Shown here in pieces: positions 55,005 to 60,975 of a DNA stretch of 64,000 nt. Made by a program: the position numbers and the translations under genes. How positions within the stretch are numbered: position 1 is the first letter of the stretch; every line of letters begins with the position of its first letter. The DNA is taken from the NCBI RefSeq assembly GCF_988242995.1, contig NZ_OZ547043.1. The stretch is one strand, 5' to 3'. The notes beneath the pieces were generated by a model, which worked only from the letters and a program-made list of their open reading frames with translations, was not told the DNA's origin and did not search any database.

Positions 55005-55958
55005 ATGCGTTTCAGTACCCAGATGATGTACCAGCAAAACATGCGCGGCATCACCAACTCTCAGGCAGAATGGATGAAGTACGGCGAACAGATGTCGACG
55101 GGTAAGCGAGTCGTTAACCCTTCAGATGATCCCATTGCTGCATCACAAGCTGTTGTTCTCTCCCAGGCACAGGCGCAAAACAGCCAGTACACGCTGGCGC
55201 GTACTTTCGCCACTCAAAAAGTGTCACTGGAAGAGAGTGTACTTAGCCAGGTCACCACTGCTATCCAGAATGCTCAGGAAAAAATTGTCTACGCCAGCAA
55301 TGGCACCTTGAGTGACGATGACCGGGCCTCGCTGGCTACGGATATTCAGGGGCTTCGTGACCAGTTGCTGAATCTGGCGAACACCACTGACGGTAACGGG
55401 CGCTACATTTTTGCCGGTTATAAAACAGAGACTGCGCCGTTTAGCGAAGAGAAAGGGAAATACGTCGGTGGAGCAGAAAGTATTAAACAACAGGTCGATG
55501 CTTCGCGTTCGATGGTGATAGGGCACACGGGTGACAAAATTTTCGACAGTATTACCAGCAACGCGGTAGCGGAACCAGACGGTAGCGCTTCTGAAACAAA
55601 TCTTTTTGCCATGCTGGATAGCGCCATCGCAGCCCTGAAAACGCCGGTCGCGGATAGCGAAGCGGATAAAGAAACCGCCGCTGCGGCACTGGATAAAACC
55701 AACCGCGGACTGAAAAACTCGCTGAACAATGTGCTGACTGTTCGCGCGGAATTAGGCACGCAGCTGAACGAACTGGAGTCGCTGGATTCATTAGGTAGCG
55801 ATCGCGCTTTAGGGCAAACGCAGCAGATGAGCGATCTGGTTGATGTGGACTGGAATGCAACTATTTCATCTTACATCATGCAGCAAACGGCATTGCAGGC
55901 ATCGTATAAAGCATTTACCGATATGCAGGGATTGTCGCTCTTCCAGCTCAACAAATAA
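55005..55958 (+). CDS. flgL: FlgL hook-associated protein 3
   Basis: 317 aa. Confidence 0.95.
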   Translation: MRFSTQMMYQQNMRGITNSQAEWMKYGEQMSTGKRVVNPSDDPIAASQAVVLSQAQAQNSQYTLARTFATQKVSLEESVLSQVTTAIQNAQEKIVYASNGTLSDDDRASLATDIQGLRDQLLNLANTTDGNGRYIFAGYKTETAPFSEEKGKYVGGAESIKQQVDASRSMVIGHTGDKIFDSITSNAVAEPDGSASETNLFAMLDSAIAALKTPVADSEADKETAAAALDKTNRGLKNSLNNVLTVRAELGTQLNELESLDSLGSDRALGQTQQMSDLVDVDWNATISSYIMQQTALQASYKAFTDMQGLSLFQLNK

Positions 55959-55999
55959 TTTCGCTTTAAAACATATCATGAAACTGGGTATGTTTTGTC

Positions 56000-56035
56000 T
56001 GCCCGCTCTGGGATCGCCGGGGCGGGCATTTTTTT
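56000..56035 (+). terminator. Rho-independent terminator after flgL
   Basis: TGCCCGC ... GCGGGCA stem followed by T7. Confidence 0.6.
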
Positions 56036-56103: not shown

Positions 56104-56133
56104 AATAAAAAAGCCCTGGCAGTTACCAGGGCT
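56104..56133 (-). terminator. Rho-independent terminator after rne
   Basis: AGCCCTGG CAGTTA CCAGGGCT hairpin with T-run on minus strand. Confidence 0.6.
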
Positions 56134-56152
56134 TGATTGCTTGAGCTAATTA

Positions 56153-59100
56153 TTACTCAACAGGTTGCGGACGCGCAGGAGCGGCAGAGGCATGATGCGT
56201 TGCCGTATGACCACCTGCGGCACCTTTGCCTTCGAAAGCAAAAGTAGGGCGCTGCCAGTCACTGTGACGCGGTGCCTCCGGAACATATTCCGGTGCCGGA
56301 GCGCGTGTCATTGGCGCGGTAGCGTGGTTATGCTCAACGGTGACCTCAGGTTTAACCGCGGCTACCGTTTCAACTTCTGCTGCGACTTCAGCGACGACTG
56401 GCGCGGCAGGTTGAGCAACAACTTCAGGTTCAGCAACCACAACCTCAGCAGTTTCGGCAACTTCTTCAATATCAGCCGTCTCTTCCTGCGGTTCAACCAC
56501 CGGTTCTGCGTGTTCTGCAACTTCCTGGGCTACGGCAACATCAGACTCGGTAATCACCTGCGGCTGTTCAGTTACCGCGGCGGCAATCACTTCAGGATGC
56601 GTAGTTTCAACCACTTCAGGTTGCGGTTCGGCAACCTGAACGGGGGCTTCTACAACTTCAGCCACTTCTTCAACAACCGGTGCGCTAACAACAGGTTCGA
56701 CAGCGGCGGCGACAGGGACCTCAGTCACCATCGGCTGCACTTGTACTTCTTCCTGTTCGCGCTGCTCTTCGACCTGTACATCTTGCGGACGTACAATTGG
56801 ATAGCGGATCCATACTTTGCCAGAGGCCAGTTCCGGAGATGCGCACGCTACGGTCAACGGCATTGGCGATTGGGTTGGATAACGCTCGTCACGATAGCGA
56901 CGACGACGCTGACCACTCACGCGCAGGTGACGAGGCGAGCGGCGAGAACGACGCGGCATGCCACCGTTGTCACGGTTATCGGCATTGTTCTCTTCTTGCT
57001 GTTCTGGTGCAGCTTGCGCTACGACTGGCAGCGGGACTTTCACCAGTTCTGTGCGTGGAGCTGGCGCTTCCTGAACAATTGGTTCGGCAGCGACAGTTTC
57101 TTCAACCACCGGTGCGACTACCGCCTCTTCGGCTACGCTTTGCTCGTAACGCACTTTCTGATTGAGCTGACGCTGTTTACGACGCGGCTGAACCGGACGT
57201 ACACGTTCTTCCTGTTCGGTTTCCTGAACAGATTGCTCTTCAACATTCAGCGCCTTCGCTTCTTGTTGCGCCTGACGTTTATCATCGTTACGGCGGCGGC
57301 TACGTTCACGACGCGGCGCTTGCTGCTCGTCGGTGGTACGTGCTTTTTCCGTTACCTCAGCCTGCTGACGGCTCTCACGCGTCTCGGCAGTCTGCTGCTG
57401 TGCCTGGCGACGATTACGACGGTTTTCTTCGCGATTATCGCTGCCTTCAGTACGTTCACTACGGGTGTCGCGGCGCTCATTACGGTCACGGCGGTTGTTC
57501 TGACGAGGCTTGCGACGATCCTGTTGACGTTCCGGTTTCGCTTCTGCTTTCGGTGCTGGTTGCTCGGTCGGTTTGGTTTCTTCACCACCGCTGAACAGCG
57601 CTTTCAGTGCGCCGAAGAAACGGCTTAACAGCCCAGGTTGTGCAGGAGCTGCTGGTGTTGCCGGTGCAGCTTTAGGTGCTGGGGCTACGACAGGCGCGGC
57701 AGGTTCAGCTGGGGTTGGTGCTGGCGGCACATCCGGCATGGCAAAGGTAGCCAGCGCAGGTTGTTCCGGACGCTTACGTTCAGCGAACTCTTCTTCAGAC
57801 GGCAGCGCCATCGCTTCTTCATGCAGCTTCGGCAGCATGTAGCTTAAGGTTGGGGTTTCTTCCCCTTTGCGAACGCGCAGCACATGGTAGTGCGGGGTTT
57901 CCATCTGATCGTTTGGCACAATCACACAGCGCACGCCGTCCTGACGAGTTTCAATCGCATTCACTGCAGAACGTTTTTCATTCAGCAGATAAGAAGCGAT
58001 TGGCACAGGAACAATGGCGTGAACTTCCTGGGTGTTCTCTTTCAGCGCTTCTTCTTCGATCAGACGCAGAATAGAGAGCGACAGCGATTCGTTGTCACGC
58101 ACGGTACCGGTACCGGAGCAGCGCGGGCAGACGTGATGGCTGGATTCACCCAGTGATGGGCTCAGGCGCTGACGGGACATTTCCAGCAGGCCAAAGCGAG
58201 AAATATGGCTGATTTGAATACGCGCACGGTCCTGACGCACCGCTTCACGCAGACGGTTTTCTACCGCACGCTGGTGGCGTACTGGCGTCATGTCGATGAA
58301 GTCGATAACAATCAGGCCGCCGAGGTCACGCAGGCGCAGCTGACGAGCAATCTCATCGGCAGCTTCGAGGTTGGTGTTAAACGCGGTTTCTTCAATATCG
58401 CCGCCGCGGGTCGCGCGTGCGGAGTTGATGTCGATGGCGGTTAACGCTTCGGTGCTGTCGATAACAATGGAACCACCGGATGGCAGACGAACTTCACGCT
58501 GGAAGGCGGACTCAATCTGTGACTCGATCTGGTAGTGGCTGAACAGCGGGATCTCGCCGGTGTACAGTTTGATTTTGCTGCTGAAATCCGGGCGACCTAA
58601 TGCAGCGATATGCTGACGTGCCAGTTCGAGCACTTTCGGGTTATCGATAAGGATTTCGCCGATATCCTGACGTAAGTAATCGCGGAATGCGCGAACGATG
58701 ACGTTGCTCTCCTGATGAATCAGGAATGGAGCAGGGCGGCTTTCAGCGGCTTTTTTGATGGCTTCCCAGTGTTTCAGACGGAAGCTTAAATCCCATTGCA
58801 GCGCCTCAGCAGATTTGCCGACGCCAGCGGTGCGCACGATAAGCCCCATGCCTTCCGGCAGTTCAAGGCTCGCCAGTGCTTCTTTTAATTCGGTACGGTC
58901 GTCGCCTTCGATACGGCGAGAAATGCCACCCGCGCGCGGGTTGTTCGGCATCAGAACCAGATAGCTACCCGCCAGACTGATAAAGGTGGTTAATGCCGCG
59001 CCTTTGTTGCCGCGCTCTTCTTTATCGATCTGAACAATGACTTCCTGACCTTCACGCAACACATCTTTAATGTTGGGACGACCATGAGCACTGTAGTTAG

Positions 59101-59338
59101 CAGGGAAATATTCGCGGGCAATTTCTTTTAGTGGGAGGAAACCGTGACGTTCAGCGCCGTAATCAACAAAAGCAGCTTCCAGACTCGGTTCAATGCGGGT
59201 GATTTTACCTTTGTAGATGTTTGCCTTTTTCTGCTCGTGCCCTGGACTTTCAATATCCAGGTCATACAGACGCTGCCCATCTACAAGGGCAACGCGCAAC
59301 TCTTCCTGCTGAGTTGCGTTGATTAACATTCTTTTCAT
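56153..59338 (-). CDS. rne: RNase E
   Basis: 1061 aa; N-terminal S1/catalytic domain; Arg-rich and acidic/Pro-rich low-complexity C-terminal scaffold. Confidence 0.97.
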
Positions 59339-59699
59339 CGTAACTTACTCATTATTCTTACATTGACGACTAAGCTGCGGGCAAAGTAACGCCTTTCCGG
59401 GTGTGAACCGATGGCCTCGTGTCTAGTCGCGTCGCCAACCTCACGGTTATCGTCAGCTCAAAGAGGCGCAGAGTGTCGGTTGCCCGTTTTTCATGCGGAA
59501 AAACAGCGCAATTATCAAAGAAACAGACTGGGTATTACTCTCCAGAAATATTTCCATCTACCGGTAAGGACTGCAACCCGCAGCCCGCTAACTGCCTGAA
59601 AGATCAATACGTCTTACGCCATTGCTGCGTGGATGATCGGTCGGGCAAAATGGGTTATTCCGTAAAATTTCTTGTTTTAACAAGGATGGACACGGAAAC
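59339..59699 (-). promoter_or_regulatory. rne 5' leader (autoregulatory UTR) and promoter region
   Basis: Long untranslated region upstream of rne ATG; known to mediate RNase E autoregulation; exact transcription start not determined here. Confidence 0.55.
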
Positions 59700-59793
59700 G
59701 GCCTCATTATTCCACTGCAAGCCTTGTTATAGCAAGATGACTTTTACCATTTATCACCCGCTTACTCACAGTTTTTTCACTTCTTGCTGGTGA
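59473..59793 (+). CDS. yceQ: YceQ-like ORF antisense to the rne leader (doubtful gene)
   Basis: Open frame only; overlaps rne 5' UTR on opposite strand; likely non-coding. Confidence 0.25.
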
Positions 59794-60870: not shown

Positions 60871-60902
60871 TACGAGCATATAAGCATGATAATGGGCGGT
60901 TG

Positions 60903-60975
60903 GCCTGATAAGGCGTTTACGCCGCATCAGGCTGCCAGCACCGATTGCCGGATGCGACGTAAACGCATCCGGCGC
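60903..60975. repeat. Two REP elements between rluC and yceF
   Basis: GCCTGATAAGGCGTTTACGCCGCATCAGGC and TGCCGGATGCGACGTAAACGCATCCGGCGC. Confidence 0.6.

Follow-up and report, generated by a model that had tools for sequence, protein, structure and literature searches.

A 487-codon open reading frame antisense to rne as a very probable by-product of the composition of the RNase E scaffold region

The rne gene, encoding RNase E, is an essential and heavily studied gene of E. coli, and in the strain analysed here an open reading frame of 487 codons runs along its opposite strand. This raises the question of whether the frame is a gene in its own right or results from the way in which rne is written. 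A true gene would mean that a 487-amino-acid protein is hidden inside an essential E. coli gene, which would be remarkable, and the evidence is strongly against it. The open frame is almost certainly a passive side effect of the rne coding sequence, without function, and we infer that it is not translated.

In the open reading frame listing of the window, i.e. the whole 64,000-nt stretch of DNA that was analysed, the frame occupies positions 56165-57628 of the plus strand, with a TTG start and a TAA stop, which recovers exactly the coordinates of the 487-codon antisense frame that the original prediction had placed inside rne. From stop to stop the open stretch comprises 492 codons, with an upstream in-frame TAA at 56147. 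The frame lies entirely within rne (56153..59338, minus strand) and is codon-aligned with it, as (56165-56153) mod 3 = 0, spanning rne sense codons 572-1058. The expectation of several long stop-free frames on this strand was correct for one antisense frame and not for the remaining two, which contain 20 and 9 stops in the same stretch. The RNase E/G catalytic domain, the S1 domain, the thioredoxin-like small domain and the C-terminal PNPase-binding motif of rne were recognised, the four Pfam E-values being 1e-98, 2e-31, 2e-17 and 1e-12, the rne5 5′ UTR element scored 260 bits, and the flgL-rne-rluC synteny is present, with neighbours matching those of K-12 MG1655. The features of the locus are the following:

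56000..56028, plus strand: strong intrinsic terminator after flgL (12-pair stem, then T7)
56111..56134, minus strand: intrinsic terminator hairpin of rne with a T run, 31 nt upstream of the antisense TTG as read on the plus strand
56153..59338, minus strand: rne, RNase E, 1061 aa (Pfam S1, RNase_E_G, RNase_E_G_Thio and PNPase_C)
56156..57751, minus strand: disordered non-catalytic C-terminal half of RNase E, residues 530-1061 (coordinates derived from rne; limits from PMC4435900)
56165..56275, minus strand: PNPase-binding site, residues 1022-1058 (Pfam PNPase_C, PF12111), opposite the 5′ end of the open frame
56165..57628, plus strand: open frame of 487 codons opposite rne codons 572-1058, very probably a non-coding by-product
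57593..57646, minus strand: membrane-targeting sequence (MTS), residues 565-582 (from the sequence; limits from PMC4435900)
57626..57628, plus strand: TAA ending the antisense frame, reverse complement of the TTA codon of Leu571 within the membrane-targeting helix

The non-catalytic region of gamma-proteobacterial RNase E (530-1061) has been described as a disordered scaffold with an ANR-rich and an AEPV-rich bias, tandem repeats and microdomains (PMC4435900). The sense strand under the frame is identical in kind to this known region, with the MTS, the PNPase-binding site, the compositional bias and a 24-nt tandem repeat located in rne beneath the antisense frame, and no difference between the two was found. 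The C-terminal half had been characterised beforehand as Arg-rich and then Glu/Pro/Ala-rich, which agrees with the bipartite bias reported in PMC4435900. It is rich in E, A, V, R, P and Q and poor in Leu and Ser, these two amounting to 1.8% and 3.7% in the region of the open frame versus 10.2% and 6.6% in the N-terminal half of RNase E. Going upstream from the disordered region, Leu first becomes frequent in the MTS, which fixes the 3′ limit of the antisense frame in this strain. The real feature at this locus is the RNase E non-catalytic region, and the antisense frame is its shadow.

In the codon-aligned register an antisense stop (TAA, TAG or TGA) is possible only opposite the sense codons TTA (Leu), CTA (Leu) and TCA (Ser). 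The rne gene contains 12 of these stop-making codons, all of them within codons 5-571 and none in codons 572-1061. Among the 487 sense codons under the frame there are 9 for Leu and 18 for Ser, and these 27 are written as CTG, CTC, TTG, AGC, TCT, AGT or TCG, the commoner Leu and Ser choices in the genome. Leu and Ser being scarce, and none of them being written as TTA, CTA or TCA, the frame therefore stays open up to Leu571. Mechanistically, the antisense frame is the exact reverse complement of the rne codons, codon for codon. The disordered scaffold, in which Glu, Ala, Val, Arg, Pro and Gln predominate, offers few Leu and Ser residues opposite which a stop could arise, and the frame remains open from the 3′ end of rne until the Leu571 codon of the membrane-targeting helix supplies the first TTA. 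On this explanation nothing maintains the frame, and neutral synonymous changes in rne lengthen, shorten or break it.

The alternative that survives best, and that we nevertheless regard as unlikely, is very low-level antisense transcription and translation of the frame, yielding an unselected product without a role and possibly representing a proto-gene. This reading shares with the by-product explanation both the origin of the frame and its lack of function, and differs only on whether there is any product. Antisense transcription and translation of unannotated ORFs have been reported to be widespread, and pervasive at a low level, in E. coli (PMC7457138), proteomics has detected dozens of unannotated ORFs, antisense ones included, according to the accessible part of PMC11195188, and a chance SD-like motif (GAGG) lies 5-8 nt upstream of an internal ATG at 56195 (+). 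Appreciable transcription is argued against by the terminators upstream of the frame and the lack of a promoter consensus. The flgL terminator at 56000..56028, at which the sRNA FlgO ends in the K-12 annotation, should block read-through from flgKL into the antisense frame. A consensus scan, which is itself no evidence either way, identified no promoter-like site between this terminator and the frame, and a single weak match (9/12) inside it, at 56769-56797 (+), that likewise says nothing for or against function. No SD precedes the TTG at 56165. As regards published data, rne is not mentioned in the text and the one accessible supplement of the recoding and proteomics study PMC11195188, and a literature phrase search for "rne antisense" returned an engineered antisense construct only. 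Among the entries listed in the accessible part of a transcription start site (TSS) study of strain EDL933, the canonical rne TSS is the only one for this gene, the antisense tables of that part ending before about 1.59 Mb, short of rne. Less probable still is that occasional expression yields a young proto-protein of about 480 aa, confined to the species and encoded opposite the RNase E scaffold region, and that this expression might also interfere with the rne mRNA.

Returning to the by-product explanation, the respective contributions of codon choice and amino-acid composition can be separated. Codon optimisation alone, in which a well-expressed rne avoids the rare codons TTA, CTA and TCA while composition is irrelevant, as has been proposed for dnaK and rpoB, is a very improbable account. 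The three codons are indeed minority codons in the window (TTA 13%, CTA 3%, TCA 10.5%), and the tendency of highly expressed genes to avoid rare codons has been given as the origin of many frame -1 ORFs (bioRxiv 10.1101/724807). However, the N-terminal half of rne, which is equally expressed, contains 11-12 stop-making codons and no long antisense run, and a 490-codon stretch with N-terminal-like Leu/Ser content would be open with a probability of 4e-6, versus 0.03-0.07 for the real composition; on these two grounds codon optimisation was rejected as the sole cause. Across 80 rne genes, moreover, the C-terminal halves use stop-making codons above the N-terminal prediction, with 406 observed versus 240.5 expected from N-terminal usage (a ratio of 1.69). 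Codon choice contributes to the open frame, and amino-acid composition is its main cause.

The length of the frame was compared with several null expectations. When synonymous codons were permuted with the protein fixed, the median longest run was 295 codons and P(≥490) was 0.10; when codons were redrawn from the codon usage of the window, again with the protein fixed, these values were 253 codons and 0.036. The closed-form frame -1 formula of Moshensky & Alexeevski (bioRxiv 10.1101/724807) gave P = 0.028-0.067 for this allele and P = 0.008-0.020 for the 563-codon K-12 allele. These P values, which are not corrected for gene number per genome, are nothing unusual when an E. coli genome holds several thousand genes. 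Once the Leu/Ser counts and the codon usage are taken into account, stop avoidance is not significant. The length does fall towards the upper end of the null distributions (P about 0.03-0.10, and 0.008-0.02 for the K-12 allele), so that mild avoidance of stops may, formally, have contributed. Permuting the order of the sense codons left the antisense frame open in 200 of 200 trials. The attribution of the frame to compositional bias in the original prediction is thus borne out by the Leu/Ser scarcity, by these permutations and by nulls without significant stop avoidance. A chance ORF in random sequence was rejected, as in 2000 mononucleotide shuffles of the interval the longest run averaged 132 codons and never exceeded 306, the A-poor plus strand (17% A) explaining part of the length. 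At antisense codon position 3 the share of A is as low as 4.7%.

The most far-reaching alternative is a genuine antisense overlapping gene, whose transcription would start at an internal promoter or read through from another and whose functional product, about 480 aa long, would abound in Phe, Leu, Arg and Thr. It is encouraged by the state of the frame within the species, as not one of the 11 E. coli alleles examined (the window strain and ten RefSeq strains) interrupts it. In the ten other strains Leu571 is encoded by the synonymous TTG and the frame extends to codon 499, reaching 563 codons. As evidence for a gene this openness is uninformative: 27 Leu/Ser codons are at risk, the alleles share ancestry, and in a neutral simulation at about 38 differences the frame stayed open in 47% of single comparisons. 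Against the overlapping gene, a synonymous TTG-to-TTA change in the window strain takes 73 codons off the K-12-type frame. A strain labelled E. coli (L001) has a dS of 0.35 from the window and for this reason does not count as a conspecific here, the ten RefSeq strains taking that place; it is treated as a divergent Escherichia.

The open frame is not conserved in related genomes, be it E. albertii, Salmonella, L001 or the rne genes of other Enterobacterales. E. albertii has five stop-making codons in the C-terminal half of rne, three of them within the interval of the frame, while Salmonella has three and L001 one in that half. A neutral simulation constrained by the sense frame only expects 3-4 antisense stops, with which the E. 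albertii and Salmonella counts agree, so that the nearest relatives carry 1-5 stops at a neutral rate. Several of these stops result from synonymous changes in the codons of conserved Leu residues, and those seen in E. albertii and Salmonella include CTG-to-CTA at codons 725, 770 and 828. The longest antisense run differs in its boundaries among all of the 79 other Enterobacterales rne genes, and its median length there is 315 codons (139-704). Across rne genes, GC3 correlates with the longest run (rho = 0.64, p = 2e-10) and expected with observed stop-making codons (rho = 0.67).

The substitutions track the codon structure of the sense frame. In two Escherichia comparisons about 75% of the differences (119/159 and 143/193) fall at sense position 3, and the sense omega of rne, 0.00-0.03 over the N-terminal half, rises to about 0.1 over the C-terminal half. 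Purifying selection on the antisense product was not seen: its omega is about 1 (0.88-1.63, the value of 0.88 coming from the E. albertii comparison), and the sense dS under the frame is not depressed, at 0.42-0.55 versus 0.35-0.43 in the N-terminal half. The E. albertii value lies below the crude simulated range of 1.20-2.56 (predicted about 1.7). The sense-only simulation treats every replacement as equally acceptable and takes no account of the fact that position-1 replacements usually outnumber those at position 2, so the low value was taken as a weakness of the model and the non-coding antisense frames of flgK, flgL and rluC were used as empirical controls instead. These gave an omega of 1.15-2.55, and controls with a lower sense omega gave 1.5-1.6.

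Codon usage was compared on both strands, a check proposed with the original prediction, and the antisense frame scored 0.053, which is non-coding-like, while the sense strand scored 0.35 there; genes scored 0.25 ± 0.15 and antisense frames 0.10 ± 0.12. It has been argued that codon usage is a weak criterion for embedded ORFs (PMC7457138). The antisense product matched no Pfam family at E ≤ 1, and among 5.8 billion proteins it belongs to five clusters, none of which is named as a gene of its own and all of which are antisense translations of rne or a chimera. In RefSeq, rne is the sole annotation beneath the match in 30 of the 30 listed records and in 10 of the 10 retrieved regions. The text and 18 supplements of the survey of E. 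coli antisense genes by Zehentner et al. do not mention rne. With a frame broken in relatives, an antisense omega of about 1, a non-coding score, no domain and only rne annotated, the view that this is not a gene is upheld, and an overlapping gene is extremely unlikely in spite of the GAGG at -8 to -5 of ATG 56195, the weak internal promoter-like match and the long translated antisense ORFs reported elsewhere (accessible parts of PMC8850804 and PMC7103648), its start lacking a promoter consensus and lying behind a strong terminator.

The phenomenon of long codon-aligned antisense ORFs is already known. The closest likeness is to the frame -1 antiparallel ORFs (AORFs or "shadow ORFs") such as that of dnaK, which share the codon-aligned register, with stops only opposite TTA, CTA and TCA, and in which purifying selection acts on the sense gene but not on the antisense translation. 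Both can mislead annotation, and ORFs of >1800 bp opposite dnaK have been mis-annotated as "NAD-specific glutamate dehydrogenase" (Pfam PF10712) (bioRxiv 10.1101/724807). The dnaK AORF recurs across many genomes and has been put down mainly to the avoidance of rare codons by a gene that is both highly expressed and highly conserved, whereas the rne frame arises mainly from Leu/Ser scarcity in a fast-evolving disordered region, has shifting boundaries and has given rise to no protein family. Reported antisense genes, namely the 603-bp pop, which lies opposite ompA in E. coli O157:H7 (PMC7103648), and the Pseudomonas aeruginosa genes olg1 and olg2 of 957 and 1536 nt (PMC8850804), resemble it, as far as the accessible parts of these sources go, in being long ORFs fully embedded antisense in an annotated gene. 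For all of them RNA-seq and Ribo-seq signal is reported there, and for olg1/olg2 purifying selection as well; in contrast, the rne frame failed the selection test, is unconserved, and evidence of its expression was not found in the literature searched.

The locus is informative for the quality control of genome annotation. The original prediction had called the frame a trap for gene callers. In the three contigs examined that encode the antisense "protein", such a call arose only where the assembly damages rne, the interruption being a 100-N gap, 11 indels or a contig end that folds back. The locus shows precisely why a disordered region poor in Leu and Ser can leave hundreds of codons open in its codon-aligned antisense frame, and also when annotation fails, namely where gaps in the scaffold, erroneous indels or folded-back contig ends break rne.

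The original prediction placed a 487-codon antisense open frame at 56165-57628, and the ORF listing returned exactly these coordinates and this length. The frame is wholly enclosed by a 1061-aa minus-strand ORF that is annotated as rne, the gene for RNase E, in all E. coli genomes checked:

56165..57628, plus strand: antisense ORF, 487 aa, TTG start, TAA stop
56153..59338, minus strand: rne, Pfam S1, RNase_E_G, RNase_E_G_Thio and PNPase_C
59363-59699, minus strand: Rfam rne5 5' UTR element preceding rne, 260 bits

The closest in-frame stop upstream is a TAA at 56147, giving a stop-to-stop open length of 492 codons, and no Rfam match was found within 56165-57628. The distance from the rne stop to the ORF start is a multiple of three. 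Antisense codons therefore pair one-to-one with sense codons (rne codons 572-1058) as their reverse complements, and the only sense codons that can give rise to an antisense stop (TAA, TAG or TGA) are TTA (Leu), CTA (Leu) and TCA (Ser). All 12 such codons in rne lie within positions 5-571, with none beyond 571, and the TAA of the ORF is the complement of the Leu571 TTA. As Leu571 belongs to the membrane-targeting helix of RNase E (residues 565-582; PMC4435900), the antisense frame is closed by the first Leu-rich element lying upstream of the disordered scaffold.

Opposite the ORF, leucine and serine account for only 9 (1.8%) and 18 (3.7%) of 487 sense codons, compared to 10.2% and 6.6% of rne residues 1-529, and all 27 are synonyms other than TTA, CTA and TCA. 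The sense product is instead composed of Glu (15%), Ala (13.5%), Val (13%), Arg (11%), Pro (10%) and Gln (9%), matching the published non-catalytic region (residues 530-1061), which is intrinsically disordered with an ANR-rich proximal and an AEPV-rich distal part (PMC4435900). A 24-nt imperfect tandem repeat (2.3 copies, 56581-56636) in the AEPV-rich part is consistent with the report of tandem repeats as a conserved feature of this region (PMC4435900). On the plus strand of the interval A makes up 17%, and 4.7% at antisense codon position 3. When sense codon order was permuted the frame stayed open in 200 of 200 trials: openness depends on codon content alone. Composition thus stands as the cause, although not low complexity as such, which had been proposed; the cause is the scarcity of Leu and Ser together with ordinary codon preference. 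Nor are there several long stop-free frames, as had been stated, because the other two antisense frames contain 20 and 9 stops within this interval.

The frame greatly exceeds the length expected of random sequence: mononucleotide shuffles of the interval (n=2000) gave a mean longest run of 132 codons and a maximum of 306. The right null keeps the RNase E protein fixed, and here the length is not beyond expectation: permuting synonymous codons within rne gave a median of 295 (P(>=490) = 0.10) and drawing codons from the window's genes a median of 253 (P(>=490) = 0.036). The frame -1 formula of Moshensky & Alexeevski (bioRxiv 10.1101/724807) returned P = 0.028-0.067 for the window allele, 0.008-0.020 for the 563-codon K-12 allele and 4e-6 for 490 codons at N-terminal-like Leu/Ser content. 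The longest antisense run within the window is that of rne, followed by one of 246 codons.

A longer frame of 563 codons (sense codons 499-1061) occurs in ten E. coli strains, K-12, O157:H7 and CFT073 among them. Leu571 is TTG in all ten and TTA in the window strain and E. albertii, and relative to the ten this synonymous difference cuts 73 codons off the putative product. The C-terminal rne allele of the window strain is a rare one: of 5425 E. coli genomes, only 88 reach at least 99% identity to it and most have 97-98%. Stop-making codons in the C-terminal half number five in E. albertii (three within the ORF interval), three in Salmonella enterica subsp. arizonae and one in L001 (NZ_JAATUR010000009.1, labelled Escherichia coli). 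Several of those in relatives result from synonymous change at a conserved Leu, and simulated sense-only selection predicted a gain of 3-4 stops at such divergence. The L001 genome is probably not typical E. coli but a divergent lineage of Escherichia, judging from dS values of 0.35-0.60 to the window in rne, flgK, flgL and rluC, similar to those of E. albertii.

Since the third position of a sense codon is the first of its antisense codon, constraint on the antisense frame would lower sense dS. Sense dS was not depressed under the ORF (0.42-0.55, versus 0.35-0.43 in the N-terminal half), sense omega was about 0.10, and sense position 3 held 119 of 159 differences from L001 and 143 of 193 from E. 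albertii. Antisense omega was 0.88-1.63 in six comparisons, versus 1.15-2.55 for the non-coding antisense of flgK, flgL and rluC. Against a simple simulation (1.1-2.6), which takes no account of amino-acid exchangeability, the figure for E. albertii is a little low; an omega close to 1 does not, in any event, amount to purifying selection.

Comparing codon usage on both strands, by log-odds trained on the window's genes, gave 0.053 for the ORF and 0.35 for the sense strand (genes 0.25 +/- 0.15; non-coding antisense frames 0.10 +/- 0.12). The putative product (Phe 14%, Leu 13%, Arg 13%, Thr 10%) had no Pfam match. No Shine-Dalgarno sequence precedes TTG 56165, and a GAGG at -8 to -5 of ATG 56195 is regarded as chance. 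Two terminators lie upstream of the ORF as read on the plus strand, with no promoter-like site between them and the ORF on that strand:

56000-56028, plus strand: strong terminator after flgL
56111-56134, minus strand: rne terminator hairpin

The K-12 sRNA FlgO is annotated at the flgL 3' end; its window equivalent (~55958-56035, plus strand) ends at the first of these terminators and matched no Rfam family at E <= 0.01. Low-level translation of the frame into an unselected proto-protein is considered improbable. Among the papers and datasets that could be searched, none reports an antisense gene or transcript in rne. Undepressed sense dS, antisense omega around 1 and a non-coding-like codon score support the earlier view that this is not a gene. 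Antisense genes reported as real, such as pop and olg1/olg2, are described as backed by expression data (PMC7103648, PMC8850804) and, for olg1/olg2, also by selection evidence (PMC8850804).

Further features of the neighbourhood are:

59419-59793, plus strand: 124-aa GTG ORF, counterpart of K-12 yceQ (b1085, DUF2655), antisense to rne5
60902-60974, both strands: naRNA4-like (REP-type) element downstream of rluC, just below the Rfam gathering score
61560-61728, plus strand: SraB sRNA, Rfam, 210 bits

The yceQ counterpart is likewise probably spurious; it has one of the lowest coding scores in the window (-0.13), and PGAP placed no CDS at its position in nine other E. coli strains.

The warning that the frame is a trap for gene callers proved justified. 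In RefSeq, rne alone was annotated under the match in 30 of 30 records among the matches listed, and it was the sole gene overlapping the interval in ten retrieved E. coli regions. Five protein clusters (5.8 billion searched) matched the antisense product, and the encoding contigs were inspected for three:

L091, metagenome scaffold with a 100-N gap within rne: P0003, 268 member sequences
L093, genome assembly, rne with 11 indels and several neighbouring genes split: P0001
L092 4001-6282 (NCBI LVRK01000076.1), contig end folded back on itself: P0004, 760 aa, named 'ribonuclease E, partial'

Due to the fold-back P0004 is a chimera of sense residues 1-576 and an antisense translation back over roughly codons 745-552; its lack of stops is owed solely to an antisense frame that is both codon-aligned and open. 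In every case examined, the sense gene at which the trap fired was damaged.

Open antisense frames of this kind are an already known phenomenon: frame -1 antiparallel ORFs, the TTA/CTA/TCA logic and the absence of purifying selection have been described, as have ORFs of >1800 bp opposite dnaK that led to the spurious Pfam family PF10712 (bioRxiv 10.1101/724807). The rne genes of 79 other Enterobacterales loci (L001-L080 except L035, whose sequence was too short) had longest codon-aligned antisense runs of 139-704 codons (median 315), with boundaries varying by species and length correlating with GC3 (rho = 0.64). With the window added (n=80), the number of stop-making codons in the C-terminal half tracked what Leu/Ser counts and N-terminal codon usage predict (rho = 0.67). 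The 406 observed exceed the 240.5 expected (1.7x), and stops are therefore not avoided across the family; this excess suggests that codon selection is weaker in the scaffold region of rne.
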